Shown here piece by piece: positions 9,314 through 31,878 of a DNA stretch of 33,240 nt. Origin of the DNA: a virus. Its lineage: Duplodnaviria > Heunggongvirae > Uroviricota > Caudoviricetes. The notes below the pieces were generated by a model. It did no database searches and was not told where the DNA came from. It saw only the letters and a list, made by a program, of their open reading frames with translations. Within the stretch, counting starts at the first letter, position 1. The number at the start of each line of letters is the position of its first letter. The position numbers were made by a program, and so were the translations under genes. Where the stretch lies: IMG/VR virus record IMGVR_UViG_2551306674_000008. The stretch is one strand, 5' to 3'.

Positions 9314-9335
9314 AAAAAAGCCGCCCGCAGGCGGC
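9314..9335 (-). terminator. rho-independent terminator after Q
   Basis: GCCGCC-CGCA-GGCGGC hairpin followed on the minus strand by a run of six U, immediately downstream of the Q stop at 9341. Confidence 0.7.
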
Positions 9336-9340
9336 GATGT

Positions 9341-12147: not shown

Positions 12148-12320
12148 GAATACCTCGCCGTGATGAATACACGGCAAGGCTACTGAGTCGCGCCCTGCGA
12201 TTCGCTAAGGTGCTGTTGTGTCAGTGATAAGCCATCCGGGACTGATGGCGGAGGATGCGCATCGTCGGGAAACTGATGCCGACATGTGACTCCTCTAATC
12301 ACTATTCAGGACTCCTGACA
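12148..12320. promoter_or_regulatory. divergent late promoter region between P and O
   Basis: Intergenic region between the divergently transcribed P and O starts, where P2 has its Ogr-dependent late promoters; I could not find an exact TGT-N12-ACA dyad by eye. Confidence 0.4.
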
Positions 12321-13175: not shown

Positions 13176-13233
13176 CCGGTGTCAGTCAGTCCGGGAAAAC
13201 CTTCACGATTAACCCTTAATTTCAGGAAAAACT

Positions 13234-14307
13234 ATGCGCCAGGAAACCCGCTTTAAATTTAATGCCTACCTGTCCCGTGTTGCCGAACTGAACGGCATCG
13301 ACGCCGGTGATGTGTCGAAAAAATTCACCGTTGAACCGTCGGTCACCCAGACCCTGATGAACACCATGCAGGAGTCCTCTGACTTTCTGACCCGCATCAA
13401 CATTGTGCCGGTCAGCGAAATGAAAGGGGAAAAAATTGGTATTGGTGTCACCGGCTCCATCGCCAGCACCACCGACACCGCCGGTGGCACCGAGCGTCAG
13501 CCGAAGGACTTCTCGAAGCTGGCGTCAAACAAGTACGAATGCGACCAGATTAACTTCGATTTTTATATCCGCTACAAAACGCTGGACCTGTGGGCGCGTT
13601 ATCAGGATTTCCAGCTCCGTATCCGTAACGCCATTATCAAACGCCAGTCCCTTGATTTCATCATGGCCGGTTTTAACGGCGTGACGCGTGCCGAAACCTC
13701 TGACCGCAGCAGCAATCCGATGCTGCAGGATGTGGCGGTCGGCTGGCTGCAGAAATACCGCAATGAAGCCCCGGCGCGCGTGATGAGCAAGGTCACTGAC
13801 GAGGAAGGGCACACCACCTCTGAGGTCATCCGCGTGGGTAAGGGCGGTGATTATGCCAGCCTTGATGCACTGGTGATGGATGCGACCAACAACCTGATTG
13901 AACCGTGGTATCAGGAAGACCCTGACCTTGTGGTGATTGTGGGGCGTCAGCTACTGGCGGACAAGTATTTTCCCATCGTCAACAAGGAGCAGGACAACAG
14001 CGAAATGCTGGCCGCTGACGTCATCATCAGCCAGAAACGCATCGGCAACCTGCCAGCGGTACGCGTCCCGTACTTCCCGGCGGATGCGATGCTCATCACG
14101 AAGCTGGAAAACCTGTCCATCTACTACATGGATGACAGCCATCGCCGCGTGATTGAGGAAAACCCGAAACTCGACCGCGTGGAGAACTACGAGTCAATGA
14201 ACATTGATTACGTGGTGGAGGACTACGCCGCCGGTTGTCTGGTGGAAAAAATTAAGGTCGGTGATTTCTCCACACCGGCTAAAGCGACCGCAGAGCCGGG
14301 AGCGTAA
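13234..14307 (+). CDS. N: major capsid protein N (357 aa)
   Basis: 357 aa as in P2 gpN; position between scaffold and small terminase. Confidence 0.9.
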   Translation: MRQETRFKFNAYLSRVAELNGIDAGDVSKKFTVEPSVTQTLMNTMQESSDFLTRINIVPVSEMKGEKIGIGVTGSIASTTDTAGGTERQPKDFSKLASNKYECDQINFDFYIRYKTLDLWARYQDFQLRIRNAIIKRQSLDFIMAGFNGVTRAETSDRSSNPMLQDVAVGWLQKYRNEAPARVMSKVTDEEGHTTSEVIRVGKGGDYASLDALVMDATNNLIEPWYQEDPDLVVIVGRQLLADKYFPIVNKEQDNSEMLAADVIISQKRIGNLPAVRVPYFPADAMLITKLENLSIYYMDDSHRRVIEENPKLDRVENYESMNIDYVVEDYAAGCLVEKIKVGDFSTPAKATAEPGA

Positions 14308-14310
14308 CCG

Positions 14311-15054
14311 ATGACGAGTCCCGCACAGCGCCACATGATGCGGGTCTCGGCAGCGATGACCGCGCAGAGGGACGCCGCCCCGCTGCGACATGCAACTGTC
14401 TATGAGCAGATGCTGGTTAAGCTCGCCGCAGACCAGCGCACACTGAAAGCAATTTATTCAAAAGAGCTTAAGGCCGCGAAAAAGCGCGAACTGCTGCCGT
14501 TCTGGTTGCCGTGGGTGAACGGTGTGCTGGAGCAGGGCAAAGGTGCACAGGATGACATTCTGATGACGGTCATGCTGTGGCGTCTGGATACCGGCGATAT
14601 TGCCGGTGCGCTGGAGATTGCCCGTTATGCCCTGAAGTACGGTCTGACCATGCCGGGTAAACACCGCCGTACCCCGCCGTACATGTTCACCGAGGAGGTG
14701 GCGCTTGCGGCCATGCGCGCTCACGCTGCCGGTGAATCCGTGGAACCCCGCCTGCTGACGGAGACCCTTGAACTGACCGCCACGGCAGACATGCCTGATG
14801 AAGTGCGCGCAAAGCTGCACAAAATCACCGGTCTGTTTCTGCGTGACGCTGGTGATGCCGCAGGGGCACTGGCGCACCTGCAACGTGCGACACAGCTCGA
14901 CTGTCAGGCAGGCGTCAAAAAAGAGATTGAACGACTGGAGCGGGAGCTGAAACCGAAGCCGGAGCCGCAGCCAAAAGCGGCCACCCGCGCCCCGCGTAAG
15001 ACCCGGAGTGCGACACCGGCAAAACGTGGACGCCCGAAAAAGAAAGCCAGTTAA
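14311..15054 (+). CDS. M: terminase small (endonuclease) subunit M (247 aa)
   Basis: 247 aa as in P2 gpM; basic lysine/arginine-rich C-terminus. Confidence 0.85.
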   Translation: MTSPAQRHMMRVSAAMTAQRDAAPLRHATVYEQMLVKLAADQRTLKAIYSKELKAAKKRELLPFWLPWVNGVLEQGKGAQDDILMTVMLWRLDTGDIAGALEIARYALKYGLTMPGKHRRTPPYMFTEEVALAAMRAHAAGESVEPRLLTETLELTATADMPDEVRAKLHKITGLFLRDAGDAAGALAHLQRATQLDCQAGVKKEIERLERELKPKPEPQPKAATRAPRKTRSATPAKRGRPKKKAS

Positions 15055-15153
15055 CAACCGAATGCGCCCCGCGCCAGGGCGGCACGCCGGTCAGTGAGGG
15101 TGAATCATCTGACACTGCACCGGCGTCCACCGCCCGACTTTTCAGAGGTAGTC

Positions 15154-15663
15154 ATGATGACGCTGATTATTCCGCGAAAGGAGGCTCCCGTGTCCGGTGA
15201 GGGTACGGTGGTCATCCCGCAACCGGCAGGCGACGAGCCGGTGATTAAAAACACGTTCTTTTTTCCCGATATCGACCCGAAGCGCGTCCGGGAACGTATG
15301 CGCCTTGAGCAGACTGTCGCCCCCGCCCGTCTGCGTGAGGCCATCAAGTCAGGCATGGCGGAGACGAATGCGGAGCTGTACGAGTACCGCGAACAGAAAA
15401 TTGCCGCCGGTTTTACGCGTCTGGCGGACGTCCCGGCGGACGACATCGACGGTGAAAGCATCAAAGTTTTTTACTACGAGCGCGCCGTGTGCGCGATGGC
15501 GACCGCATCGCTTTATGAGCGTTATCGCGGCGTGGATGCCAGTGCGAAAGGCGACAAGAAGGCCGACAGCATTGACAGCACCATTGATGAGCTGTGGCGG
15601 GATATGCGCTGGGCGGTGGCGCGCATCCAGGACAAGCCGCGCTGCATCGTGAGTCAAATCTAA
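15154..15663 (+). CDS. L: head completion/stabilisation protein L (169 aa)
   Basis: ATG at 15154 with AGAGG RBS gives 169 aa, the P2 gpL length (track ORF starts at 15094). Confidence 0.85.
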   Translation: MMTLIIPRKEAPVSGEGTVVIPQPAGDEPVIKNTFFFPDIDPKRVRERMRLEQTVAPARLREAIKSGMAETNAELYEYREQKIAAGFTRLADVPADDIDGESIKVFYYERAVCAMATASLYERYRGVDASAKGDKKADSIDSTIDELWRDMRWAVARIQDKPRCIVSQI

Positions 15664-15866
15664 TGAAGGCCTTTGCGCTACAGGGCGACACGCTCGACGC
15701 CATTTGTGTCCGGTATTACGGGCGCACTGAGGGCGTGGTTGAGGCCGTGCTCGCCGCAAATCCGGGACTGGCTGAACTGGGTGCGGTGCTGCCACACGGC
15801 ACCGCCGTCGAACTGCCCGACGTTCAGACCGCGCCCGTGGCTGAAACTGTCAATCTGTGGGAGTAA
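15663..15866 (+). CDS. X: tail protein X (67 aa)
   Basis: ATG overlapping the L stop (TAATG); 67 aa beginning MKAFALQGDTLDAICVRYYG, as in P2 gpX. Confidence 0.8.
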   Translation: MKAFALQGDTLDAICVRYYGRTEGVVEAVLAANPGLAELGAVLPHGTAVELPDVQTAPVAETVNLWE

Positions 15867-15869
15867 CGC

Positions 15870-16151
15870 ATGACAGCAGAAGAAAAAAGCGTCCTGTCGC
15901 TTTTCATGATTGGGGTGCTGATTGTTGTCGGCAAGGTGCTTGCCGGTGGTGAACCCATCACCCCGCGTCTGTTTATCGGGCGCATGTTGCTCGGTGGTTT
16001 TGTCTCGATGGTTGCCGGTGTTGTTCTGGTGCAGTTTCCTGACCTGTCACTGCCTGCGGTGTGCGGCATTGGCTCCATGCTGGGTATCGCCGGTTATCAG
16101 GTGATTGAGATTGCCATTCAGCGCCGCTTTAAGGGCAGGGGGAAACCGTAA
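15870..16151 (+). CDS. Y: holin Y (93 aa)
   Basis: 93 aa with hydrophobic transmembrane segments; first gene of the lysis cassette. Confidence 0.85.
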   Translation: MTAEEKSVLSLFMIGVLIVVGKVLAGGEPITPRLFIGRMLLGGFVSMVAGVVLVQFPDLSLPAVCGIGSMLGIAGYQVIEIAIQRRFKGRGKP

Positions 16152-16648
16152 TGCCGGTAATTAACACGCACCAGAATATCGCCGCCTTTCTCGACATGCT
16201 GGCCGTGTCCGAAGGGACGGCGAATCATCCGCTGACGAAAAACCGGGGCTATGACGTGATAGTCACCGGACTGGACGGGAAGCCGGAAATTTTCACCGAC
16301 TACAGTGACCACCCGTTCGCGCATGGCCGACCGGCGAAGGTGTTTAACCGTCGCGGTGAAAAATCCACGGCCTCCGGTCGCTATCAGCAGCTTTACCTGT
16401 TCTGGCCGCATTACCGCAAACAGCTTGCCCTGCCGGATTTCAGTCCGTTGTCACAGGACAGACTCGCCATTCAGTTGATCCGCGAACGCGGTGCGCTGGA
16501 TGACATCCGGGCGGGACGTATTGAGCGCGCCATTTCACGCTGTCGCAATATCTGGGCGTCCCTGCCGGGTGCCGGTTACGGTCAGCGTGAGCATTCACTG
16601 GAAAAACTGGTCACCGTCTGGCGTACCGCCGGCGGCGTACCGGCTTAA
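16151..16648 (+). CDS. K: endolysin K (165 aa)
   Basis: 165 aa as in P2 gpK; follows the holin gene with an overlapping start. Confidence 0.85.
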   Translation: MPVINTHQNIAAFLDMLAVSEGTANHPLTKNRGYDVIVTGLDGKPEIFTDYSDHPFAHGRPAKVFNRRGEKSTASGRYQQLYLFWPHYRKQLALPDFSPLSQDRLAIQLIRERGALDDIRAGRIERAISRCRNIWASLPGAGYGQREHSLEKLVTVWRTAGGVPA

Positions 16649-16662
16649 ACGGAGTAAACACC

Positions 16663-17088
16663 ATGAAGAAATTATCCCTTTCACTGATGCTGAATGTGTC
16701 GCTGGCGCTGATGCTGGCACTGTCCCTGATTTACCCGCAGAGCGTGGCCGTCAATTTTGTCGCTGCCTGGGCGATTCTGGCGATGGTTATCTGTGTGGTT
16801 GCCGGTGGTGTCGGCGTGTATGCCACTGAGTATGTGCTGGAACGCTACGGGCGGGAGCTGCCGCCGGAATCGCTGGCCGTGAAGATTGTCACGTCGCTGT
16901 TTTTGCAGCCGGTGCCGTGGCGCAGACGGGCGGTGGGTCTGGTGGTGATGGTGGCGACGTTTATCTCGCTGGTCGCCGCCGGGTGGATTTTTACCGCGCT
17001 GATTTATCTTGTGGCGTCGCTATTTTTCCGGTTGATGCATACGGCCTGCCGCCAGCGTCTTGAGGGGCGGAAACCATGTCAAGGCTGA
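16663..17088 (+). CDS. lysA: lysis regulatory membrane protein LysA (141 aa)
   Basis: 141 aa, multiple hydrophobic helices; same length and position as P2 LysA. Confidence 0.8.
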   Translation: MKKLSLSLMLNVSLALMLALSLIYPQSVAVNFVAAWAILAMVICVVAGGVGVYATEYVLERYGRELPPESLAVKIVTSLFLQPVPWRRRAVGLVVMVATFISLVAAGWIFTALIYLVASLFFRLMHTACRQRLEGRKPCQG

Positions 17089-17501
17089 TGACTGTGCTGG
17101 TCGTGTTGTTATCGCTGGCGTTGGCGGGGCTGTTTCTGGTGAAACACAAAAATGCCAGCCTGCGCGCCTCGCTGGACAGGGCGAACAATGTCGCCAGTGG
17201 GCAGCAGACGACCATCACCATGCTGAAAAATCAGCTTCATGTTGCCCTCACCAGGGCAGACAAAAACGAGCTGGCGCAGGTGGCACTGCGTCAGGAACTG
17301 GAGAACGCCGCGAAACGTGAAGCACAGCGCGAGAAAACCATCACGAGGTTACTGAATGAAAACGAGGATTTTCGCCGCTGGTATGGCGCTGACCTGCCTG
17401 ATGCTGTGCGCCGGTTGCACCAGCGTCCGGCCTGCACTGACGCCAGTGATTGTCGCCAACGCCTGCCCGAAAGTGAGCCTTTGCCCGATGCCGGGCAGTG
17501 A
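17076..17501 (+). CDS. lysB: Rz-like inner-membrane spanin LysB (141 aa)
   Basis: N-terminal TM helix followed by a charged coiled-coil region; 141 aa as in P2 LysB. Confidence 0.8.
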   Translation: MSRLMTVLVVLLSLALAGLFLVKHKNASLRASLDRANNVASGQQTTITMLKNQLHVALTRADKNELAQVALRQELENAAKREAQREKTITRLLNENEDFRRWYGADLPDAVRRLHQRPACTDASDCRQRLPESEPLPDAGQ

Positions 17502-17646
17502 CCCGCAGACGAACGGCGATTTAAGTGCCGATATCCGGCAGCTTGAGAACGCGCTGGCACGCTGTGCCAGCCAGGTAAAAATGATTAAACACTGTCAGGA
17601 TGAAAACGATGCTCAAACCCGACAGCCTGCGCAGGGCGCTGACTGA
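17356..17646 (+). CDS. lysC: Rz1-like outer-membrane lipoprotein spanin LysC (96 aa)
   Basis: Embedded in another frame within the 3' end of lysB; signal peptide with lipobox LCAGC; proline-rich; 96 aa as in P2 LysC. Confidence 0.75.
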   Translation: MKTRIFAAGMALTCLMLCAGCTSVRPALTPVIVANACPKVSLCPMPGSDPQTNGDLSADIRQLENALARCASQVKMIKHCQDENDAQTRQPAQGAD

Positions 17647-18076
17647 TGCCGTCACGGTGCTGAAAACTAACCCCGATATGCTGCGGATATTCGTGGATAA
17701 CGGGAGTATTGCCTCCACGCTGGCGACGTCGCTGTCGTTCGAAAAGCGTTACACGCTCAATGTGATTGTGACCGACTTTACCGGTGATTTTGACCTGCTC
17801 ATCGTGCCGGTGCTGGCGTGGCTGCGGGAAAATCAGCCCGACATCATGACCACCGACGAAGGCCAGAAAAAGGGCTTCACGTTTTATGCAGACATCAACA
17901 ATGACAGCAGCTTTGATATCAGCATCAGCCTGATGCTGACCGAGCGCACGCTGGTCAGTGAGGTGGACGGCGCACTGCATGTGAAGAACATCCCGGAGCC
18001 TCCGCCGCCGGAGCCGGTCACCCGCCCGATGGAGCTGTATATCAATGGCGAACTGGTGAGCAAGTGGGATGAATGA
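17609..18076 (+). CDS. R: tail completion protein R (155 aa)
   Basis: ATG at 17609 with AGGA RBS gives 155 aa, the P2 gpR length (track ORF starts at 17600). Confidence 0.85.
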   Translation: MLKPDSLRRALTDAVTVLKTNPDMLRIFVDNGSIASTLATSLSFEKRYTLNVIVTDFTGDFDLLIVPVLAWLRENQPDIMTTDEGQKKGFTFYADINNDSSFDISISLMLTERTLVSEVDGALHVKNIPEPPPPEPVTRPMELYINGELVSKWDE

Positions 18077-18521
18077 GTTTAAGCGTTTTGAAGACCGGCT
18101 GGCGGGACTTATTGAATCGCTGTCACCGTCAGGGCGTCGGCGGCTGAGTGCAGAGCTGGCGAAGCGTCTGCGGCAGAGTCAGCAGCGTCGGGTGATGGCA
18201 CAGAAAGCCCCGGACGGCACACCCTACGCGCCACGCCAGCAGCAGAGCGCCAGAAAAAAGACCGGTCGTGTTAAGCGAAAAATGTTTGCGAAACTTATCA
18301 CCAGTCGTTTTTTGCATATCCGCGCCAGCCCTGAACAGGCATCAATGGAGTTTTACGGCGGGAAGTCACCGAAAATAGCCAGTGTGCATCAGTTCGGTCT
18401 GTCGGAAGAAACCCGGAAAGACGGTAAGAAAATTGATTATCCGGCGCGTCCTCTGCTCGGCTTTACCGGTGAGGATGTGCAGATGATTGAAGAGATTATC
18501 CTGGCTCACCTCGACCGTTAG
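18069..18521 (+). CDS. S: tail completion protein S (150 aa)
   Basis: 150 aa as in P2 gpS; overlaps the R stop. Confidence 0.85.
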   Translation: MNEFKRFEDRLAGLIESLSPSGRRRLSAELAKRLRQSQQRRVMAQKAPDGTPYAPRQQQSARKKTGRVKRKMFAKLITSRFLHIRASPEQASMEFYGGKSPKIASVHQFGLSEETRKDGKKIDYPARPLLGFTGEDVQMIEEIILAHLDR

Positions 18522-18587
18522 TTGTGCCATTCCCGACACCTCATCGTCACATTGCCGCCGGTATGACCCGGCGGCATCCTTCCCGTT

Positions 18588-19223
18588 ATGAACACTCTCG
18601 CAAATATCCAGGAACTCGCGCGCGCACTGCGCAACATGATTCGCACCGGCCTTGTCGTCGAAACCAACCTTAAAGCCGGTCGCTGCCGTGTGCAGACCGG
18701 CGGCATGTGCACCGACTGGCTTCAGTGGCTGACCCATCGTGCCGGGCGTTCGCGCACATGGTGGGCACCTTCCGTGGGGGAGCAGGTGCTGATTCTGGCC
18801 GTGGGCGGTGAACTTGACACGGCGTTTGTTCTGCCGGGGATTTATTCCAGCGATAACCCCGCGCCGTCTGCGTCGGCGGATGCCCTGCATATCCGTTTCC
18901 CTGACGGGGCGGTGATTGAGTATGAACCCGAAACCAGTGCACTCACGGTAAGCGGAATTAAAACGGCCAGCGTGACGGCTTCTGATTCTGTTACTGCCAC
19001 GGTACCGGTGGTCACGGTGAAAGCGTCAACCCGTGTCACCCTGGACACACCGGAAGTGGTCTGCACTAACAAACTGACTACCGGCACGCTGGAAGTACAG
19101 AAGGGCGGGACGATGCGCGGCAACATTGAACACACCGGCGGTGAACTCTCATCAAACGGTAAGGTACTGCATACCCACAAACACCCCGGCGACAGCGGCG
19201 GCACAACCGGGAGTCCTTTATGA
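18588..19223 (+). CDS. V: baseplate central spike protein V (211 aa)
   Basis: 211 aa as in P2 gpV; first gene of the baseplate block. Confidence 0.85.
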   Translation: MNTLANIQELARALRNMIRTGLVVETNLKAGRCRVQTGGMCTDWLQWLTHRAGRSRTWWAPSVGEQVLILAVGGELDTAFVLPGIYSSDNPAPSASADALHIRFPDGAVIEYEPETSALTVSGIKTASVTASDSVTATVPVVTVKASTRVTLDTPEVVCTNKLTTGTLEVQKGGTMRGNIEHTGGELSSNGKVLHTHKHPGDSGGTTGSPL

Positions 19224-19567
19224 CAGCGCGTTATCTCGGAATGAATCGCAGTGATGGCCTGACTGTCACTGACCTTGAGCATATCAGCCAGAGTATCGGC
19301 GATATCCTGCGTACCCCCGTCGGCTCACGGGTGATGCGTCGTGATTACGGCTCGTTGCTGGCGTCAATGATTGACCAGCCGCAGACCCCGGCGCTTGAGT
19401 TGCAGATTAAGGTCGCCTGTTACATGGCGGTGCTGAAATGGGAACCCCGCGTCACCCTGTCATCCGTCACCACTGAGCGCAGTTTTGACGGGCGAATGAC
19501 GGTCACGTTAACCGGCCAGCACAACGACACCGGCCAGCCACTTTCGTTAACCATCCCTGTGAGTTGA
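19220..19567 (+). CDS. W: baseplate wedge protein W (gp25-like, 115 aa)
   Basis: 115 aa as in P2 gpW; ATGA overlap with V. Confidence 0.85.
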   Translation: MTARYLGMNRSDGLTVTDLEHISQSIGDILRTPVGSRVMRRDYGSLLASMIDQPQTPALELQIKVACYMAVLKWEPRVTLSSVTTERSFDGRMTVTLTGQHNDTGQPLSLTIPVS

Positions 19568-19571
19568 AACC

Positions 19572-20480
19572 ATGCCGATTATCGACCTGAACCAGCTACC
19601 CGCACCGGATGTGGTCGTGGAGCTGGACTTTGAAACCATTCTTGCTGAACGCAAGGCGACACTGATTTCCCTTTACCCGGAAGACCAGCAGGAGGCGGTC
19701 GCCCGTACCCTGACGCTGGAATCCGAGCCTATCGTCAAACTGCTGGAGGAAAACGCTTATCGTGAGCTTATCTGGCGTCAGCGTGTGAATGAGGCTGCAC
19801 GGGCGGTGATGCTGGCTTGTGCTGCCGGTAATGACCTTGATGTGATTGGTGCCAATTACAACACCACGCGCCTGACTATCACCCCGGCAGATGATTCGAC
19901 CATTCCGCCGACACCGGCAGTGATGGAATCTGACACCGATTATCGTCTGCGTATTCAGCAGGCTTTTGAGGGCTTAAGCGTCGCCGGGTCAGTGGGAGCC
20001 TATCAGTATCATGGTCGCAGTGCTGACGGGCGTGTCGCGGATATTTCTGTCACCAGTCCGTCTCCTGCCTGTGTCACCATCTCTGTGCTGTCACGTGAAA
20101 ATAACGGCGTCGCATCCGAAGACCTGCTGGCTGTGGTGCGTAACGCCCTTAATGGCGAGGACGTCAGGCCGGTGGCCGACCGCGTGACCGTGCAGTCTGC
20201 CGCCATCGTTGAATACCAGATAAACGCCACGCTTTACCTTTACCCTGGTCCCGAAAGCGAACCCATCCGCGCTGCCGCTGTGAAAAATCTGGAAGCGTAT
20301 ATCACGGCACAGCACCGGCTGGGGCGTGACATCCGTCTGTCTGCCATTTATGCCGCTTTGCATGTGGAAGGTGTGCAGCGTGTCGAACTGGCTGCACCAC
20401 TGGCCGACATCGTGCTCAACAGTACGCAGGCGTCTTTCTGTACCGAATACCGCGTCGTGACCGGAGGCTCGGATGAGTGA
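19572..20480 (+). CDS. J: baseplate protein J (302 aa)
   Basis: 302 aa as in P2 gpJ. Confidence 0.85.
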   Translation: MPIIDLNQLPAPDVVVELDFETILAERKATLISLYPEDQQEAVARTLTLESEPIVKLLEENAYRELIWRQRVNEAARAVMLACAAGNDLDVIGANYNTTRLTITPADDSTIPPTPAVMESDTDYRLRIQQAFEGLSVAGSVGAYQYHGRSADGRVADISVTSPSPACVTISVLSRENNGVASEDLLAVVRNALNGEDVRPVADRVTVQSAAIVEYQINATLYLYPGPESEPIRAAAVKNLEAYITAQHRLGRDIRLSAIYAALHVEGVQRVELAAPLADIVLNSTQASFCTEYRVVTGGSDE

Positions 20481-21003
20481 TTCGCGACTGCTGCCGACCG
20501 GCTCATCACCGCTTGAAGTTGCTGCCGCAAAAGCCTGTGCGGAAATTGAAAAAACGCCGGTCAGGATTCGTGAGCTGTGGAACCCGGACACCTGTCCGGC
20601 AAATCTACTGCCGTGGCTGGCGTGGGCGTTTTCGGTCGACAGGTGGGATGAAAAGTGGCCGGAAGCGACAAAACGCGCCGTTATTCGCGATGCCTATTTC
20701 ATCCACTGTCATAAAGGCACTATAGGTGCAATCCGGCGTGTGGTGGAGCCGCTGGGCTATCTCATCAACGTGACGGAGTGGTGGGAAACCAGTGACCCGC
20801 CAGGCACCTTCCGGCTTGATATTGGCGTACTGGAAAGCGGCATCACAGAGGCAATGTATCAGGAAATGGAACGGCTTATTGCTGATGCCAAACCTGCAAG
20901 CCGTCATCTTATTGGCCTGAACATTACCCGGGATATTCCCGGCTACCTGTTCGCCGGTGGTGTGGCTTACGACGGCGATGTAATTACGGTTTACCCCGGA
21001 TAA
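20473..21003 (+). CDS. I: baseplate protein I (176 aa)
   Basis: 176 aa as in P2 gpI; overlaps the J stop. Confidence 0.85.
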   Translation: MSDSRLLPTGSSPLEVAAAKACAEIEKTPVRIRELWNPDTCPANLLPWLAWAFSVDRWDEKWPEATKRAVIRDAYFIHCHKGTIGAIRRVVEPLGYLINVTEWWETSDPPGTFRLDIGVLESGITEAMYQEMERLIADAKPASRHLIGLNITRDIPGYLFAGGVAYDGDVITVYPG

Positions 21004-21013
21004 GTGAGGAATA

Positions 21014-23092
21014 ATGAGCACAAAATTCAGAACCGTTATCACCACTGCCGGTGCAGCAAAGCTGGCAGCGGCAACCGCACCGGGAGGGCGGAAGGTCAAC
21101 ATTACCACGATGGCCGTCGGGGATGGCGGTGGTAAATTGCCTGTCCCGGATGCCGGACAGACCGGGCTTATCCACGAAGTCTGGCGACATGCGCTGAACA
21201 AAATCAGCCAGGACAAACGAAACAGTAATTATATTATCGCAGAGCTGGTTATTCCGCCGGAGGTGGGCGGTTTCTGGATGCGTGAACTTGGCCTGTACGA
21301 TGATGCGGGAACGCTAATTGCCGTGGCGAACATGGCCGAAAGTTATAAGCCAGCCCTTGCCGAAGGCTCAGGGCGTTCGCAGACCTGCCGCATGGTCATC
21401 ATCGTCAGCAGTGTGGCCTCAGTGGAGCTGACCATTGACACCACAACGGTGATGGCAACGCAGGATTACGTTGATGACAAAATTGCAGAACATGAACAGT
21501 CACGACGTCACCCTGACGCCTCGCTGACCGCCAAAGGTTTTACTCAGTTAAGCAGTGCGACCAACAGCACGTCTGAAACGTTCGCCGCAACACCAAAAGC
21601 GGTAAAGGCCGCGTATGACCTTGCTAACGGGAAATATACCGCACAGGACGCCACCACAGCGCGAAAAGGCCTTGTCCAGCTCAGTAGTGCCACCAACAGC
21701 ACGTCTGAAACGCTCGCCGCAACACCAAAAGCGGTAAAAGCAGCATATGACCTTGCTAACGGGAAATACACTGCACAGGATGCCACCACAGCACGAAAAG
21801 GCCTTGTTCAGCTGAGTAGCGCCATCAACAGCGATTCTGAAACGCTGGCTGCAACACCAAAAGCGGTGAAGTCTGCCTATGACAATGCTGAAAAACGTCT
21901 TCAGAAAGATCAGAACGGTGCGGATATTCCGGGAAAGGATACTTTCACGAAAAATATCGGTGCCTGTCGTGCTTATAGCGGTGCTTTGAGCACTGAAGCC
22001 GGAAACTGGACAACCGCTCAGTTTATTGACTGGCTAGAGTCTCAGGGAGCCTTTAATCATCCCTACTGGATGTGCAAGTGTTCCTGGTCATACGGTAATA
22101 ACAAAATTATTACCGATACTGACTGTGGGACTATTCATCTTGCAGGTTGCGTGATTGAGGTTATGGGCGTTAAAGCTGCAATGACCATTCGTGTGACCAC
22201 TCCGAGTACATCAAGCGGTGGTGGTACCACCAGTGCGCAATTCACGTATATCAATCACGGAGCTGATTATGCGCCGGGCTGGCGACGCGACTACAATACG
22301 AAAAATAAGCAACCGGCTTTTGCATTAGGGAAAACAGGAAATACGGTTGCAAATAATAAAGCGGTAGGATGGAACTGGGATAGTGGTGCTTATTGTGCAC
22401 AGGATGGCGGAGCATCAAAAATGGTGCTGCATTTTTACACGGGTGAGGGAAGTTGTCCGGCAATGCAGTTTCTTGTGGATTATAAAAACAGGGGGATTTT
22501 TTACAGGTCGGCACGTGATGGGTATGGATTTGAGGCTGACTGGTCTGAGTTTTATACAACATCACGAAAGCCAACACCTGCGGATATTCTTGCTCTGGCA
22601 TTATCAGGCGGAAGCATGTCAGGCAGCATAAAATTTATCAATGATGCCTTCCTGATTTGGGAAAGAAACACTGACTGGGCGAAAATTGGATTTAAAAATG
22701 ATTCAGATGCTGATTCTGACTCATACATGTGGTTTGAAACTGGTGATAATGGCAATGAATATTTTAAATGGCGCATCAGGTCTGGCAGCACAACAAAAGA
22801 CCTGATGACGCTTAAGTCTGATGCACTACGGGTTACCGGGCAGGTGATACCATCAAATTTCAGCAATTTTGACTCCCGCTATGTCCGGGATATCCGGCTT
22901 GGTGGTGCCGCCACATACAAACCTGCGAACAATGGCATGACATGGACACATCAGGCACCGTCCGGGTGTGTATATACCGGCATTATTGTTCAGGATACCG
23001 GCTCAAACTCTGCCGATAACATTGGTGGCGTATATTACAGACCGGTTCAGAAATACATTAACGGGACGTGGTACAACGTGGCGCAGGTATAA
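21014..23092 (+). CDS. H: tail fiber protein H (692 aa) with internal tandem repeats and a divergent C-terminal receptor-binding region
   Basis: Conserved P2 H-like N-terminus and extreme C-terminus (PIQKYINGTWYNVAQV-like end); middle and distal part unlike what I recall of P2 H; 23 aa longer than P2 H. Confidence 0.85.
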   Translation: MSTKFRTVITTAGAAKLAAATAPGGRKVNITTMAVGDGGGKLPVPDAGQTGLIHEVWRHALNKISQDKRNSNYIIAELVIPPEVGGFWMRELGLYDDAGTLIAVANMAESYKPALAEGSGRSQTCRMVIIVSSVASVELTIDTTTVMATQDYVDDKIAEHEQSRRHPDASLTAKGFTQLSSATNSTSETFAATPKAVKAAYDLANGKYTAQDATTARKGLVQLSSATNSTSETLAATPKAVKAAYDLANGKYTAQDATTARKGLVQLSSAINSDSETLAATPKAVKSAYDNAEKRLQKDQNGADIPGKDTFTKNIGACRAYSGALSTEAGNWTTAQFIDWLESQGAFNHPYWMCKCSWSYGNNKIITDTDCGTIHLAGCVIEVMGVKAAMTIRVTTPSTSSGGGTTSAQFTYINHGADYAPGWRRDYNTKNKQPAFALGKTGNTVANNKAVGWNWDSGAYCAQDGGASKMVLHFYTGEGSCPAMQFLVDYKNRGIFYRSARDGYGFEADWSEFYTTSRKPTPADILALALSGGSMSGSIKFINDAFLIWERNTDWAKIGFKNDSDADSDSYMWFETGDNGNEYFKWRIRSGSTTKDLMTLKSDALRVTGQVIPSNFSNFDSRYVRDIRLGGAATYKPANNGMTWTHQAPSGCVYTGIIVQDTGSNSADNIGGVYYRPVQKYINGTWYNVAQV
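21536..21890 (+). repeat. about 2.7 tandem copies of a 132-bp (44-aa) repeat inside H
   Basis: Unit LSSATNSTSET(F/L)AATPKAVKAAYDLANGKYTAQDATTARKGLVQ repeated at about 21536, 21668 and 21800; nucleotide identity between copies is very high. Confidence 0.85.
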
Positions 23093-23095
23093 TTT

Positions 23096-23623
23096 ATGCA
23101 GCATTTGATAAATATAACGGCAGGTAATCCAAAAACGGTTGAACAATATCAATTGACAAAGGACTTTGATGTTGTCTGGTTTTTTTCAGAAGATGGTAAG
23201 AACTGGTACGAAGAACAAAAGTATTTTGCTGATGACACGATAAAAATAGCGTACGACAAAGATAATATTATCCGCTATGTGGAAAAGGATGTGACAGCTA
23301 TCAGACCAGATGGATTAAGTGTTGTTGAAGTGCCGGATATTACTGCTAATCGACGGGCGGACATTTCAGGGAACTGGATGTTTAAGGATGGCACAGTGAT
23401 CAAACGAATTTATACGGCAGAGGAATTGCAACAGCAGGCAGAAAACAGGAAAGCCAGACTTCTTGCAGATGCTGAATCCGTGATTTTGCCGCTAGAGCGT
23501 GCTGTCAGGCTGAATATGGCAACAGATGAGGAGCGTAGCCGACTGGAAAGATGGGAGCGCTACAGCGTTCTGGTCAGTCGTGTGGATCCTGCAAATCCTG
23601 AATGGCCGGAAATGCCGCAATAA
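23096..23623 (+). CDS. G: tail fiber assembly chaperone G (175 aa)
   Basis: 175 aa as in P2 gpG; immediately downstream of H. Confidence 0.8.
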
Positions 23624-23904: not shown

Positions 23905-24600
23905 TTAATCACTTAAGGAATGAAGTGAGGCTCGTTGTGCAGAGGTTAAGCTAAGGAGGATTTTTTCTCGATACTCAGGTGCAAAGGAAAAGAAAACATC
24001 AGGAAAAATTCTTATGATAGTTGATATCATAGTCTTAACCACCTTATCAATCACCTTCGAAATATTATCTATTTTAACCAAGTCTATTTCGGGAAAAACA
24101 TTTAAAGCTTTTATGTGAGCCATTTCTTTTACAGTAGCTGTATGTACGTGACTGCATAACGAAGAGTATTCAGCTTTTAAAGTTTCATGTAGTAGAGGAT
24201 TTTTTTTGAAGACAGGATGTTCCCCAGTTTGTTCAATTACCTTAAACAATGATTTTTCTTCAAGTATTGAAGGATCTAGTAAGCAACCTATTGATTTTAA
24301 AGAATTTTCAATATAACTTCGCATCATTAGATTTGCTGGTTTGTATGCACCATTTATAACCATAAACATAGCTGTACCAAGGTCAGATGAAGCTTCTTGC
24401 AATCGCTCCAATGAGTTGGCGTCTATTTTCTCCTTGGAGAAATGATACAAACAGTAAACAAGGCACATAAAAGAATAATATCTCTTATGTATCATGCTTA
24501 TTTTCCCTCTTGAGTTAATATTCTCGAAAACATTTTTTAATTTATATTCAGAGAAATAAGTAACTAACTCAGTGAAATCGCTGTTTACTTCTCTCGACAT
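23905..24600 (-). CDS. hypothetical protein (231 aa), third gene of the ParA-like operon; function unknown
   Basis: Long ORF in a strongly AT-rich island; 2-bp gap to the upstream gene; no motif recognisable by eye. Confidence 0.65.
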   Translation of the reverse strand: MSREVNSDFTELVTYFSEYKLKNVFENINSRGKISMIHKRYYSFMCLVYCLYHFSKEKIDANSLERLQEASSDLGTAMFMVINGAYKPANLMMRSYIENSLKSIGCLLDPSILEEKSLFKVIEQTGEHPVFKKNPLLHETLKAEYSSLCSHVHTATVKEMAHIKALNVFPEIDLVKIDNISKVIDKVVKTMISTIIRIFPDVFFSFAPEYREKILLSLTSAQRASLHSLSD

Positions 24601-24602
24601 TG

Positions 24603-25109
24603 TTAGTCCTTATTGAATATATCTTTTATAACTTCATTCCAGTCATATATCTCATTTTGAGCGCTAGAAAGGTTCTTCCTCTCTTTTATTCTACTCAAAA
24701 CTTGAGGGTTATTTGACATTGAATTGATAATATTATAAGCCTTACCTAAATCGGATGAGTTTTTCTCGTGAACGTCACACACGATTATGCCGATCATTTC
24801 CTCTCTAGATCTTTTTTCAGGCCTGCTGATTTCGATACCTAACATGCGTGCAAAATCATCTATATCTTTATTTTTTTGGAAGAGATCTTTGTCTAATAAA
24901 ATCCTCGGAAGATACCCAACAAGGAAACCTTTAATATCATTTTTTTTGGACTTTGAATTTCTTTCGTTAACTTCTAAATTATCAGTATAACTATCTTGAA
25001 GTAATTCAATAAAGTTGATTCTTGATAATTTTTTTGAAATAAAGGAAAACTCCTCTAAAAAGTTTAACAGTTGCTTAATTTCTTTTGAGTTATTTTTTTT
25101 GTCAGTCAT
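24603..25109 (-). CDS. hypothetical protein (168 aa), second gene of the ParA-like operon; lysine-rich, function unknown
   Basis: ORF overlapping the upstream ATPase gene by 4 bp (translational coupling); AT-rich; no recognisable motif. Confidence 0.65.
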   Translation of the reverse strand: MTDKKNNSKEIKQLLNFLEEFSFISKKLSRINFIELLQDSYTDNLEVNERNSKSKKNDIKGFLVGYLPRILLDKDLFQKNKDIDDFARMLGIEISRPEKRSREEMIGIIVCDVHEKNSSDLGKAYNIINSMSNNPQVLSRIKERKNLSSAQNEIYDWNEVIKDIFNKD

Positions 25110-25936
25110 AAGTCACCTACTCTAGAGAGAAGTTCGTCAGTAATTTTAGACAGCGAAAACTTCATATCCTCATCCGTTAAATTGTTAATAAATAAGCCTC
25201 TTGTTTGATTTCTTGCCAACTCAGTACGTTTGCTCAAATATGATTTAAAGATCTTATTACGCCAACGTTTTTGATTATTGAAGTAACGAAGACTTTCCTC
25301 ATATAAATTACTATTACCTTCAACCATATTAAAAACTATGCCCGCACATTCAATCTTAAGATCGAAATTTTCTCTCTTCTCATTTATAATGCTATCTAAT
25401 AGATCGATACCAGTGATCGAAAGAGGATCGGGTTTGGCTGGAATGAGGTAATAATCAGATGCAATTAATGCGCTGGACATCCAAACTGATGGGGTTGGTG
25501 GGGTATCAATTATGACATAATCATAGTCATTTTCATGGATTTTAAGAAAGCGTCTAAGCTTGTTTTCTATCCCTTCTCCTGGTTTCATTTCAATTTTATA
25601 TAGCCCAAGGCTTCCGGGAACAATGTGAAAATTATCATTTAATTGAATTGGTGTTATATCGGCTAATTCTTTAGGTGTGTTAACTAAAGGACCAGTCATT
25701 GTAGATAGTCGAATTTTTGAACTATAAAAAATATCACATATGCTATCGCCTCCGCTTTTCATATGTGCAACATATTTGCTTGTATCCATTACACATTGCG
25801 TTGCGTTAAATTGTGGGTCGATATCTATTAATAATATTTTTTGCCCAAGTTTATCTGAAAGATGATTAGCAATATTGGTAGCCAATGTTGACTTACCAAC
25901 GCCACCTTTCATATTGATTAAGCTAATAACTTTCAA
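25106..25936 (-). CDS. ParA/MinD/Soj-family P-loop ATPase (276 aa)
   Basis: Deviant Walker A MKGGVGKST near the N-terminus; LLIDIDPQ and VIIDTPP motifs typical of ParA/Soj; TTG start with AGGAG 8 nt upstream; AT-rich. Confidence 0.85.
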   Translation of the reverse strand: MKVISLINMKGGVGKSTLATNIANHLSDKLGQKILLIDIDPQFNATQCVMDTSKYVAHMKSGGDSICDIFYSSKIRLSTMTGPLVNTPKELADITPIQLNDNFHIVPGSLGLYKIEMKPGEGIENKLRRFLKIHENDYDYVIIDTPPTPSVWMSSALIASDYYLIPAKPDPLSITGIDLLDSIINEKRENFDLKIECAGIVFNMVEGNSNLYEESLRYFNNQKRWRNKIFKSYLSKRTELARNQTRGLFINNLTDEDMKFSLSKITDELLSRVGDL

Positions 25937-26443: not shown

Positions 26444-26538
26444 ACTTCCGCTTCTCGCTCAAAGCAGACTGTCAGATTTGATAGCGTTTTGGCTATGTAA
26501 GTTGCCAGTTGGGAAATGAGTGAGTACAAATCAGGACA

Positions 26539-26567
26539 GGCGGGCGAATTGCCCGCCTTTTCTTTAT
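26539..26567 (+). terminator. rho-independent terminator upstream of FI
   Basis: GGCGGGC-GAATT-GCCCGCC hairpin followed by TTTTCTTTAT on the plus strand. Confidence 0.6.
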
Positions 26568-26661
26568 CTGTTGTTTCATCCACTGACCAGCCAGGTCAAA
26601 TAGCGTCTCATGCACTGCCCAACAGAAAATAGTTGCACCCATTAACCACGGAGTTAAACGG

Positions 26662-27537
26662 ATGAGTGACTATCATCACGGCGTGCAGGTGCTGGAGATT
26701 AACGACGGCACCCGCGTCATTTCCACTGTATCCACTGCCATTGTCGGCATGGTCTGCACGGCCAGCGATGCGGATGCGGAAACCTTCCCCCTCAATAAAC
26801 CGGTGCTGATTACCAATGTGCAAAGCGCAATTGCAAAGGCCGGTAAAAAAGGCACGCTGGCGGCATCGTTGCAGGCTATCGCCGACCAGTCAAAACCGGT
26901 CACCGTTGTCGTGCGTGTGGAAGACGGCACCGGCGACGACGAGGAAACGAAACTCGCGCAGACCGTTTCCAATATCATCGGCACCACCGACGAAAACGGT
27001 CAGTACACCGGACTGAAAGCCCTGCTGGCGGCGGAGTCGGTAACCGGTGTTAAACCTCGCATTCTCGGTGTGCCGGGACTGGACACCAAAGAGGTGGCTG
27101 TTGCACTGGCATCAGTCTGTCAGAAGCTGCGCGCTTTCGGGTATATCAGCGCATGGGACTGTAAAACCATTTCCGAGGTGAAAGCCTACCGTCAGAATTT
27201 CAGCCAGCGTGAGCTGATGGTCATCTGGCCGGATTTCCTCGCATGGGATACGGTCGCCAGTACCACCGCCACCGCGTATGCCACCGCCCGTGCGCTGGGC
27301 CTGCGCGCTAAAATCGACCAGGAGCAGGGCTGGCATAAAACGCTGTCCAACGTCGGGGTAAACGGTGTTACCGGCATCAGTGCCTCTGTATTCTGGGATT
27401 TGCAGGAGTCCGGCACCGATGCTGACCTGTTGAACGAGTCAGGTGTCACAACGCTGATTCGCCGTGACGGTTTCCGCTTCTGGGGTAACCGTACCTGCTC
27501 TGATGACCCGCTGTTCCTCTTTGAAAACTACATATAA
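26662..27537 (+). pseudogene. FI: tail sheath gene FI, 3'-truncated (291 codons of about 396)
   Basis: N-terminal 290 aa read as a normal P2 sheath up to ...RRDGFRFWGNRTCSDDPLFLFENY, then I and a stop; the downstream sequence continues in another frame as tape-measure protein. Confidence 0.8.
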
Positions 27538-29650
27538 CCGCCTGACGGACTCCGTTAAACGCCAGCAGCGGGAACTGGCCGCTGTGGGAATTAATACCCG
27601 CAATCTTGCACATGATGAGCAGGGACTGAAAAACCGTATCAGTGAAACCACCGCACAGCTTAACCGTCAGCGTGACGCACTGGCGCGTGTCAGTGCACAA
27701 CAGGCAAAACTTAACGCAGTCAAACAGCGTTATCAGGCAGGCAAGGAACTGGCCGGAAATATGGCCTCAGTGGGCGCTGCCGGTGTGGGGATTGCGGCGG
27801 CGGGAACGATGGCCGGAGTTAAGTTGCTGATGCCCGGTTATGAGTTTGCGCAGAAAAACTCAGAATTGCAGGCTGTGCTCGGTGTGGCAAAAGACTCCGC
27901 CGAAATGGCCGCGCTACGCAAGCAGGCGCGCCAGCTCGGCGACAATACCGCAGCCTCGGCAGATGATGCAGCCGGTGCGCAGATTATTATTGCGAAAGCC
28001 GGTGGGGATGTTGATGCCATTCAGGCGGCAACGCCGGTCACGCTGAATATGGCGCTGGCGAACCGTCGCACGATGGAAGAAAACGCCGCCCTGCTGATGG
28101 GGATGAAATCCGCCTTTCAGCTTTCAAACGATAAGGTCGCTCATATCGGGGATGTTCTCTCCATGACGATGAACAAAACCGCCGCCGATTTTGATGGCAT
28201 GAGCGATGCGCTGACCTATGCCGCACCTGTGGCAAAAAATGCCGGTGTCAGCATTGAAGAAACCGCCGCAATGGTCGGGGCACTGCATGATGCAAAAATT
28301 ACCGGTTCAATGGCGGGGACGGGAAGCCGTGCCGTGTTAAGCCGCCTGCAGGCACCGACGGGAAAAGCATGGGATGCACTGAAAGAGCTTGGCGTGAAAA
28401 CCTCAGACAGTAAAGGGAATACCCGACCAGTATTTACCATTCTGAAAGAAATGCAGGCCAGTTTTGAGAAAAACCGGCTCGGTACTGCCCAGCAGGCTGA
28501 ATACATGAAAACTATTTTCGGTGAGGAGGCCAGCTCAGCCGCCGCCGTGCTGATGACTGCCGCCTCAACCGGAAAGCTGGACAAACTGACCGCTGCGTTT
28601 AAAGCCTCAGACGGGAAGACCGCCGAGCTGGTAAATATCATGCAGGACAACCTCGGCGGTGACTTTAAGGAGTTTCAGTCCGCTTATGAGGCGGTGGGGA
28701 CTGACCTGTTTGACCAGCAGGAAGGCGCGCTGCGTAAGCTCACGCAGACGGCCACAAAGTATGTGTTAAAACTCGACGGCTGGATACAGAAAAACAAATC
28801 ACTGGCGTCAACCATCGGCCTCATTGTCGGTGGCGCACTGGCGCTTACTGGCATCATCGGTGCCATTGGTCTTGTAGCCTGGCCGGTTATCACCGGCATT
28901 AATGCCATCATCGCGGCAGCAGGCGCAATGGGGGCAATTTTCACGACGGTTGGCAGTGCTGTTATGACCGCCATCGGGGCGATTAGCTGGCCGGTTGTGG
29001 CTGTGGTGGCCGCTATTGTCGCCGGGGCGTTACTTATCCGTAAATACTGGGAGCCTGTCAGCGCATTCTTTGGCGGTGTGGTTGAAGGGCTGAAAGCGGC
29101 ATTTGCGCCGGTGGGGGAGCTGTTCACGCCACTTAAGCCGGTGTTTGACTGGCTGGGTGAAAAGTTACAGGCCGCGTGGCAGTGGTTTAAAAACCTGATT
29201 GCCCCGGTCAAAGCCACCCAGGACACCCTGAACCGTTGCCGTGACACGGGCGTCATGTTCGGGCAGGCACTGGCTGACGCGCTGATGCTGCCGCTTAATG
29301 CGTTCAACAAACTGCGCAGCGGTATTGACTGGGTACTGGAAAAACTCGGCGTCATCAACAAAGAGTCAGGCACGCTTGACCAGACCGCCGCCAGAACTCG
29401 TGCCGCCACGTATGGCACCGGTGGTTATATTCCGGCGACCAGCTCTTATGCTGGCTATCAGGCTTATCAGCCAGTTACGGCACCGGCTGGCCGCTCTTAT
29501 GTGGACCAGAGTAAAAACGAATATCACATCAGCCTGACGGGCGGTACTGCGCCGGGGACACAGCTCGACCGCCAGTTACAGGATGCGCTCGAAAAATACG
29601 AGCGGGATAAACGTGCGCGCGCCCGTGCCAGCATGATGCATGACGGTTAA
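27533..29650 (+). pseudogene. T: tail tape-measure gene T, 5'-truncated and fused out of frame to FI
   Basis: Long ORF (track 27464-29650) whose first about 23 codons are FI sequence read in another frame; no start codon or RBS at the junction; glycine/alanine-rich hydrophobic tape-measure segments; followed directly by U. Confidence 0.75.
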
Positions 29651-29664
29651 GGAGGTGACGAAAA

Positions 29665-30144
29665 ATGATGCTCGCGTTAGGTATGTTTGTTTTTATGCGC
29701 CAGACGCTGCCACACCAGACCATGCAGCGTGAATCAGATTATCGCTGGCCGTCAAATTCCCGTATCGGTAAACGGGATGCCTTTCAGTTTCTCGGTGTGG
29801 GTGAGGAAAACATCACGCTTGCCGGCGTGCTTTATCCCGAACTGACCGGCGGGAAGCTGACGATGACCACGCTCAGACTGATGGCAGAGGAAGGCCGGGC
29901 GTGGCCGTTGCTGGATGGCACCGGCATGATTTACGGCATGTATGTCATCAGCAGGGTGAGTGAAACAGGGAGTATTTTCTTTGCAGACGGCACACCCCGG
30001 AAAATTGATTTTACGCTGTCGCTCACCCGCGTTGATGAATCACTGGCCGCGCTTTATGGCGATATCGGTAAACAGGCGGAATCGCTCATCGGTAAGGCTG
30101 GCAGTATGGCGACCAGATTCACGGGTATGACGGGGGCGGGATAA
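29665..30144 (+). CDS. U: tail protein U (159 aa)
   Basis: 159 aa as in P2 gpU; GGAGG RBS. Confidence 0.85.
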   Translation: MMLALGMFVFMRQTLPHQTMQRESDYRWPSNSRIGKRDAFQFLGVGEENITLAGVLYPELTGGKLTMTTLRLMAEEGRAWPLLDGTGMIYGMYVISRVSETGSIFFADGTPRKIDFTLSLTRVDESLAALYGDIGKQAESLIGKAGSMATRFTGMTGAG

Positions 30145-31307
30145 TGCTGGATGCGCTGACATTTGATGCAGGCAGTACGCTGACGCCGGATTACATGCTG
30201 ATGCTCGACAGCAGGGATATTACCGGCAATATCAGTGACCGTCTGATGAGCATGACTCTGACGGATAACCGGGGCTTTGAGGCTGACCAGCTTGATATTG
30301 AACTGAACGATGCCGACGGGCAGGTTGGGCTGCCGGTTCGTGGCGCTGTCCTGACGGTGTATATCGGCTGGAAAGGTTTTGCCCTGGTATGCAAAGGGAA
30401 ATTCACCGTTGATGAGGTTGAACACCGGGGCGCGCCGGATGTGGTCACCATCCGCGCCCGGAGTGCAGATTTTCGCGGGACGCTCAATTCCCGCCGTGAA
30501 GGCTCATGGCATGACACCACGCTCGGTGCGATTGTTGAGGCGATAGCCTCCCGTAACAGGCTGGAAGCCAGTGTCGCTCCGTCACTGGCCGGAATTAAAA
30601 TCCCGCACATCGACCAGTCGCAGGAGTCTGATGCGAAATTTCTGACCCGTCTTGCAGAACGTAACGGCGGCGAGGTGTCGGTAAAAATGGGAAAACTGCT
30701 GTTTCTCAAAGCGGGGCAGGGGGTGACGGCCAGTGGTAAAAAAATCCCGCAGATTACCATCACCCGCAGCGACGGCGACCGTCATCATTTTGCGATTGCT
30801 GACCGTGGAGCTTACACCGGCGTAACGGCAAAGTGGTTACACACCAAAGACCCGAAACCACAAAAGCAGAAGGTAAAACTGAAACGCAAAAAGAAAGAAA
30901 AACACCTGCGCGCACTGGAGCACCCGAAAGCAAAACCGGTCACGCAGAAGAAAGCGCCAAAAGTACCGGAAGCGCGCGAAGGTGAATACATGGCCGGTGA
31001 GGCTGACAACGTTTTTGCCCTGACTACGGTATATGCCACGAAAGCGCAGGCCATGCGCGCCGCTCAGGCGAAGTGGGATAAACTGCAACGAGGTGTGGCG
31101 GAGTTCTCCATCAGCCTGGCTACCGGTCGGGCAGATATTTACACGGAAACACCGGTTAAAGTGTCAGGCTTTAAGCGCGTCATAGACGAGCAGGACTGGA
31201 CAATCACTAAGGTGACACATTTTCTGAATAATAGCGGCTTCACGACGTCCTTGGAGCTTGAGGTCAGGCTTTCTGATGTGGAGTACGAAACAGAATATAA
31301 TGAGTGA
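30144..31307 (+). CDS. D: tail protein D (387 aa)
   Basis: 387 aa as in P2 gpD; start overlaps the U stop. Confidence 0.85.
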   Translation: MLDALTFDAGSTLTPDYMLMLDSRDITGNISDRLMSMTLTDNRGFEADQLDIELNDADGQVGLPVRGAVLTVYIGWKGFALVCKGKFTVDEVEHRGAPDVVTIRARSADFRGTLNSRREGSWHDTTLGAIVEAIASRNRLEASVAPSLAGIKIPHIDQSQESDAKFLTRLAERNGGEVSVKMGKLLFLKAGQGVTASGKKIPQITITRSDGDRHHFAIADRGAYTGVTAKWLHTKDPKPQKQKVKLKRKKKEKHLRALEHPKAKPVTQKKAPKVPEAREGEYMAGEADNVFALTTVYATKAQAMRAAQAKWDKLQRGVAEFSISLATGRADIYTETPVKVSGFKRVIDEQDWTITKVTHFLNNSGFTTSLELEVRLSDVEYETEYNE

Positions 31308-31387
31308 TGTTTTTATTTTATCTGTTTGTTTTATAAGGATAAATTAACTAAATGGCACCATCAACAAAACCGGAAGAGGTGCTCGCG

Positions 31388-31606
31388 ATGTTTCATTGTC
31401 CTTTATGCCAGCATGCTGCACATGCGCGTACAAGCCGCTATATCACTGACACGACAAAAGAGCGTTATCACCAGTGTCAGAACGTGAATTGCAGCGCCAC
31501 GTTCATCACTTATGAGTCGGTACAGCGATACATCGTGAAGCCGGGAGAAGTCCACGCCGTAAGACCGCACCCGTTGCCGTCAGGGCAGCAAATTATGTGG
31601 ATGTAA
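31388..31606 (+). CDS. ogr: late gene transcriptional activator Ogr (72 aa, C4 zinc finger)
   Basis: ATG at 31388 with GGAAGAGG RBS; MFHCPLCQHAAHA...CQNVNC zinc-finger; 72 aa as in P2 Ogr (track ORF starts at 31352). Confidence 0.9.
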   Translation: MFHCPLCQHAAHARTSRYITDTTKERYHQCQNVNCSATFITYESVQRYIVKPGEVHAVRPHPLPSGQQIMWM

Positions 31607-31618
31607 TTACATACAGGA

Positions 31619-31643
31619 AGCCCCTCAGTCGAGGGGCTTTTTT
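31619..31643 (+). terminator. rho-independent terminator after ogr
   Basis: AGCCCCTC-AGTC-GAGGGGCT hairpin followed by TTTTTT. Confidence 0.85.
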
Positions 31644-31648
31644 GTCGA

Positions 31649-31667
31649 TGTGGTCAATGTGTGGACG
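31649..31667. promoter_or_regulatory. Candidate Int arm-type sites in the P arm: TGTGGTCA and TGTGGACG, 11 bp apart
   Basis: Same motif and same 11-bp spacing as the pair at 592-610 in the other arm. Confidence 0.45.
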
Positions 31668-31707
31668 TGACCAGAAATAAATCCTTTTATTTCATTGTAT
31701 TACGCGT

Positions 31708-31734
31708 AAAAAATAAGCCCGTGTAAGGGAGATT
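31708..31734. repeat. attR core, AAAAAATAAGCCCGTGTAAGGGAGATT
   Basis: Exact 27-bp copy of 477-503. Confidence 0.85.
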
Positions 31735-31878
31735 ACACAGGCTAAGGAGGTGGTTCCTGGTACAGCTAGCATTTTATGGGTTATGTTTTTCAGCGAAACG
31801 GATGATAACCTTAATAAATGCAGCTGTATGTGATCGGTTTCTAAGAATTTTCCATCCGGGAAAAATAATCGAAATTAA

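Follow-up and report, generated by a model that had tools for sequence, protein, structure and literature searches.

The DNA analysed here, referred to as the window, is the whole 33,240-nucleotide stretch of the IMG/VR virus record IMGVR_UViG_2551306674_000008. It contains a P2-like prophage (Peduovirus), as shown by the gene order from int to ogr, the high identity to P2-like phages, the att repeats and the cos site, and the sole departure from the P2 gene order in the window is a deleted block between the sheath gene FI and the tape-measure gene T, of which the truncated forms FI' and T' are left. The features are as follows.

477-503, plus strand: attL core AAAAAATAAGCCCGTGTAAGGGAGATT, left prophage end, a direct repeat with 31708-31734
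583-2401: lysogeny module with int (583-1596, minus strand), the C repressor gene (1712-2011, minus strand) and cox (2126-2401, plus strand), all full length
2573-6425, plus strand: replication genes B, orf80-83 and A, intact and without stops by tblastn against the fiAA91-ss proteins
6519-9035: cargo island 1 in the cos-proximal A/Q hotspot, encoding a SacI-family restriction endonuclease, an HTH controller and a C5 cytosine methyltransferase
9117-23623: cos and the late genes Q, P, O, N, M, L, X, Y, K, lysA, lysB, lysC, R, S, V, W, J, I, H and G, full length and without stops
23905-25936, minus strand: cargo island 2 in the G/FI hotspot, encoding a ParA-family ATPase of 276 aa and proteins of 168 aa and 231 aa
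26447-26661, plus strand: conserved stretch upstream of FI, aligned with intact phages from 26447 onwards
26662-27537, plus strand: FI', truncated sheath gene with 290 native codons, an Ile codon and TAA, a PGAP pseudogene in S19-141
27532-27533, plus strand: deletion junction, located by BLAST against fiAA91-ss and ES5
27533-29650, plus strand: T', truncated tape-measure gene with codons 111-815 plus the stop
29665-31606, plus strand: U (29665-30144), D (30144-31307) and ogr (31388-31606), all intact
31708-31734, plus strand: attR core at the right end of the prophage, overlapped by the 3' terminus of the CyaR sRNA gene

Phage homology begins at position 469, and the att core of 27 bp was found at both prophage ends. 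The CyaR/RyeE sRNA gene at 31711-31796 (minus strand, Rfam 100.7 bits) adjoins trhP, and since its 3' end overlaps the attR core, the prophage integrates into the sRNA gene and restores its end. The products of int, C and cox contain the Pfam domains Int_N and Phage_integrase, HTH_3 and Phage_Cox, respectively, and these genes are 99.4-99.5% identical at the nucleotide level to those of the isolated and viable Peduovirus phages P22H1, P22H4 and 9W. The cos and late gene region forms a gap-free alignment of 14,555 bp with fiAA91-ss at 97.2% identity, with cosL/cosR homology at 9117-9171. All genes outside the FI-T block are full length and without stops (B to A, Q to G, U, D and ogr compared with fiAA91-ss), which agrees with the original prediction that int, att, C/cox, replication, cos, head, lysis and both cargo islands are intact. 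The FETUD operon probably has its late promoter in the conserved stretch at 26447-26661.

The window was aligned base by base with phage fiAA91-ss (KF322032.1) and the intact prophage of E. coli ES5, and 1,657 bp are missing at 27532|27533, close to the 1.6 kb that had been estimated from P2 gene lengths; the ancestral state is thereby taken from relatives at 96-97% identity. Positions 26447-27532 match FI up to nucleotide 871, which corresponds to 290 codons plus one nucleotide, and positions 27532-31695 match T starting at the last base of codon 110. The A at 27532 can be assigned to either side, and the microhomology is therefore 1 bp. The 40-mer across the junction is GCTGTTCCTCTTTGAAAACTACATATAACCGCCTGACGGA. 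A motif ACCGC is present on both breakpoint sides, one base out of register, and no repeats beyond the one shared base pair were found at the breakpoints, so that a mechanistic clue is absent. To judge from the junction itself, the event is an illegitimate recombination, which is all that a microhomology of 1 bp tells. Using megablast against 50,697 phage records, 89 P2-like records had one place covering at least 80% of the 3.8-kb query, and among the 25 matches listed the query aligned in two pieces that together spanned about 5.4 kb of the record, which indicates a deletion of about 1.65 kb.

Lost from the prophage are codons 291-396 of FI, the whole of the tube gene FII, the tail chaperone genes E/E+E' and codons 1-110 of T including its native start. 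The intact reference proteins FI, FII and T have 396, 172 and 815 aa, respectively, and the values of about 396 aa for FI and about 815 aa for T on which the estimate was based are thus correct. FI' has 291 aa and ends with LFLFENY followed by Ile and a TAA stop at 27535-27537, one codon past the junction; in the complete genome of E. coli S19-141 (NZ_CP075640.1) PGAP annotates it as an incomplete pseudogene. Intact FI has the sheath C-terminal domain PF17482 at residues 280-382, and according to Pfam this domain is absent from FI'. Relative to FI, T follows in the +1 frame, and next comes U at 29665, which has kept its own strong ribosome-binding site. This end of the sheath gene, the change of frame at about 27533 and the position of U had all been read correctly from the sequence and its ORF list beforehand. 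The description of the event as a fusion of FI to T is right in so far as the deletion joins the two truncated genes. It does not extend to the protein level, since an in-frame FI-T fusion protein is ruled out by the +1 frame of T and the stop of FI' at 27535-27537, and T' is left without its native start.

The longest annotated ORF of T' (PGAP) starts with an ATG at 27503 within FI and spans 27503-29650, coding for 715 aa, of which residues 1-10 (MTRCSSLKTT) are translated out of frame from FI DNA. No Shine-Dalgarno sequence was found before this ATG or before an upstream GTG. In RefSeq, nr and UniRef this chimeric ORF bears the ordinary label "phage tail tape measure protein" (WP_024213332.1, UPI0003EF4CBF). 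The entry WP_024213332.1 is an annotation error, as 110 N-terminal residues are gone and ten out-of-frame residues from sheath DNA have been gained.

The missing parts are not located elsewhere in the window. When the deleted segment as well as the FI C-terminus, FII, E, E' and the T N-terminus were searched against the whole window with permissive blastn and tblastn, only chance hits were obtained (E values of at least 0.16), and the predicted absence of FII and E/E' from the window is thereby borne out. FI, FII, E/E+E' and T are essential to P2 tail assembly. With FII and E/E' gone and FI and T truncated, the prophage is almost certainly unable to make tails, as had been expected from the gene content. 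It is thus a defective prophage, in which at least one gene essential to virion formation is lost or inactivated. The pattern is opposite to that of a tailocin, as the head, packaging and lysis genes are intact and core tail genes are deleted. In the P2 tail, 192 copies of FI surround the FII tube, and the sheath rings are joined by an inter-subunit handshake via residues 374-382 of gpFI (bioRxiv 10.64898/2026.09.14.750843). The proteins E and E+E' of the FETUD operon arise by a programmed -1 frameshift (PMC3091744, citing Christie 2002).

Exact copies of the 715-aa T' are present on 38 contigs (78 index blocks), and those of the 291-aa FI' on 42 contigs (48 index blocks). At all loci shown the neighbours are identical, namely G, the ParA cassette, FI', T', U, D, ogr, trhP, parDE, yegP and baeSR, and the 60 nt across the junction do not differ between the loci examined, among them the eight distinct and independent assemblies with which the window was compared. 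The carriers include S19-141 from human stool in Zurich, which has a complete genome, and strain 646 from an Indian calf, which was assembled from Illumina data and scaffolded with Ragout (PMC5814501). Among 5,426 complete RefSeq E. coli genomes only that of S19-141 spans the junction, whereas 1,647 hold the two halves apart. Between carriers the chromosomal flank differs by 0-2 SNPs per about 8 kb, and no transfer into other chromosomal backgrounds is apparent among the carriers examined. The carriers are members of one clonal E. coli lineage, in which one event has been inherited. The window differs from S19-141 at five positions in 25.9 kb (8738, 18356, 19318, 21209 and 31091), of which 21209 is CAG in the window and TAG in S19-141, where PGAP reports it as an "internal stop" in the tail-fibre gene H. 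A Logan contig of DRR589133 is 100% identical to the window over the shared 16.6 kb, and the window therefore comes from a sister isolate. A literature search retrieved no paper on S19-141 or CP075640, and for CP023200 only a genome announcement and incidental uses.

The variation within the lineage was analysed over 22 kb in the eight distinct assemblies compared with the window, after removal of artefacts. About 16 point variants were found, a number in which FI' and T' are under-sampled since the carriers were found by exact identity of these two proteins; one member that was found via FI' has a Y-to-D change in T'. Two of the variants are nonsense mutations, and both affect tail genes: S19-141 has Q66* in H, and GCA_043556435.1 has Q87* in the tail completion gene R. 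The latter (locus L007) corresponds to window position 17864 and hits tail assembly a second time, independently of the deletion. With only two nonsense mutations among about 16 variants, the numbers are consistent with a relaxed constraint on tail genes as well as with neutrality, and they are no proof of the former. That nonsense mutations appeared in tail genes later than the deletion suggests that the decay is continuing. The gene H has three tandem 132-nt repeats in the window (21533-21928), and a fourth in-frame repeat is present in GCA_012120295.1 and GCA_043556435.1, leading to an H of 736 aa vs. 692 aa. Two apparent differences in this gene were rejected: about 35 "SNPs" at 21548-21877 in L006 and L007 are an alignment artefact of the 132-nt repeat expansion, and a "split H" in strain 646 (L008), which might have been taken for a third tail knockout, is an 11-N scaffold gap in the repeat. 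At window position 31350, in the D-ogr interval, four lineage members (L006, L007, L008 and L022) have one inserted base, an A. The gene ogr is called with 84 or 72 aa in different assemblies, and this call does not track the indel at 31350.

Besides the phage genes, the prophage contains two cargo islands. The first one is a type II restriction-modification (RM) island with the Pfam families RE_SacI (2.7e-76), HTH_3 and DNA_methylase (1.7e-66), located in the A/Q hotspot for cargo that was described for P2 (PMC9122126). The region 6519-9035 has no megablast match in the 50,697 phage records. The 168-aa and 231-aa proteins of the second island belong to no Pfam family, and PADLOC does not recognise the three-gene ParA cassette. 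In the index, 3,963 blocks contain the exact ParA protein. The cassette also occurs at positions 9252-11283 of locus L010 and in L011-L019; it is found at 99.4% nucleotide identity next to type I RM and DarTG in CP4-like islands, and moreover in the accessory region of a lambdoid prophage. No intact sister prophage carrying both islands was found, as no other complete genome covers cargo island 2 plus FI, and the 27 contigs with the exact ParA protein that were obtained from the 24 index blocks with the longest contigs all belong to other element types. By its genomic contexts the ParA cassette is a candidate defence or stabilisation module, and as it is common to three kinds of mobile element in defence contexts, it is the more promising lead.

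Very probably, a single spontaneous illegitimate deletion in the ancestor of one clonal lineage grounded the P2-like prophage at cyaR/trhP, which has been inherited vertically since then. Recombination with 1 bp of microhomology would have cut 1,657 bp out of the tail operon FI-FII-E-T-U-D. The sheath would thereby have lost its C-terminal domain together with the handshake strand, and the tube, both forms of the chaperone and the start of the tape measure would have been lost as well. The prophage would still be maintained, and replication, the making and filling of heads and cell lysis are probably possible. Since P2-type lysogens are stable and not SOS-inducible, the defective prophage would persist vertically, and the type II RM cargo may also penalise loss of the element. 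As every other gene is full length, the deletion can be assumed to be recent.

The possibility that the junction is an assembly artefact can practically be dismissed, because it is identical in Illumina drafts, in Logan assemblies and in a complete genome from different laboratories. The same holds for a different tail-gene arrangement with complete FI and T, the case that was named in the original prediction as speaking against a deletion: it is contradicted by FI', which is without a conserved Pfam domain (PF17482), and by T', whose 110 missing residues align in each of the 89 phage records covering at least 80% of the 3.8-kb query. The original prediction went on to suggest a domesticated element kept for its cargo, in which the host would retain an immobilised prophage for RM and ParA and the tail deletion would be favoured or tolerated for this reason. 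The cargo points in this direction to some extent, as both islands are intact without any nonsense mutation or knockout in the members examined and occupy the two published P2 defence hotspots (PMC13586616, PMC9122126), the ParA cassette is also part of defence islands in which type I RM and DarTG are its neighbours, and a conservation of defence genes in defective P2 elements is on record (PMC13586616). However, replication, lysis and excision are kept, so that the deletion does not disarm the prophage or make it any safer for the host, and intact P2-like prophages hold cargo equally well. Two of the four cargo variants are nonsynonymous, and the ParA cassette has no known defence assignment and sits in other mobile elements without such a deletion. 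Vertical retention across diverged lineages under purifying selection would be typical for a domesticated element, whereas the deletion is confined to a single near-clonal lineage (one of the 5,426 genomes), in which there has been no time for a signature of selection and the variants are too few for dN/dS. It is therefore unlikely that the prophage is kept for its cargo.

Far less likely still, though possible in principle, is spread with the aid of a helper, which the original prediction also raised and in which own DNA-filled heads would be completed with tails by the FI, FII, E and T of a co-infecting or co-resident P2-like phage. The window does contain intact att, int, cox, ori/A, cos, terminase, portal and capsid genes as well as those for head completion (L) and tail completion (R and S), and complementation of P2 tail mutants in trans is classical genetics. 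However, the carriers share their chromosomal flanks, which gives no signal of horizontal transfer, and at the megablast level S19-141 has a single FI/T place, so that no second close P2-like prophage is resident there as a helper. Moreover, the element is not streamlined like a tail-stealing satellite, since X, R, S, V, W, J, I, H, G, U and D are present and it is found in one chromosomal background only, and the stops arising in R and H would also block rescue by any helper that does not provide these proteins in trans. It is accordingly hardly credible that the tail-less prophage is an incipient helper-dependent element which excises, replicates, fills capsids and moves both defence cargo islands on the tails of superinfecting P2-like phages; if this were true, a P2 genome would here be starting to adopt the life of a capsid-forming, tail-stealing satellite. 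The recent deletion with vertical inheritance, on the other hand, is an ordinary early step in prophage decay, and its significance beyond annotation is little. It is a cleanly mapped and datable case in which the decay of a P2-type prophage begins with one inactivating step and is followed by later nonsense hits in other tail genes, and the lineage could thus serve as a small natural time series for the erosion rate of grounded prophages.

The closest known systems are the intact Peduovirus relatives. P2, fiAA91-ss, P22H1, P24E6b, R18C and the ES5 prophage share with the window the gene order between int and ogr, the att core and cos; at the nucleotide level, the intact P2-like relatives are 96-99% identical to it in the late genes and the lysogeny module. 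They hold the full FI/FII/E/E+E'/T block, whereas the window has 1,657 bp less, and the hotspot cargo differs as well. Satellites of the cf-PICI type are small, helper-induced and without tail genes, and have their own packaging and capsid genes. The window is similar to them in having its own packaging and capsid genes and no way to complete a tail; in contrast to them, it is a full-size P2 genome that has kept its other tail genes and does not spread horizontally. The P2 remnant ogrK-yegZ of E. coli K-12, beside cyaR/yegQ, has only ogr and a fragment of D left. It lies at the same chromosomal site, with ogr beside cyaR and trhP/yegQ, and can be regarded as a late stage of the same path of decay, whereas in the window about 30 kb of the prophage are still present. 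According to a survey from 2026, 98% of P2-like prophages contain at least one pseudogene, and no core gene is always lost, with the primase being the core gene that is most often pseudogenised (PMC13586616). The general idea that defective P2 prophages keep defence cargo is thus already in print (PMC13586616). Like the window, the defective prophages described there have mobility or morphogenesis inactivated and their hotspot cargo intact; compared with them, the window has a single lesion, a clean tail-operon deletion, which represents a very early stage of decay.
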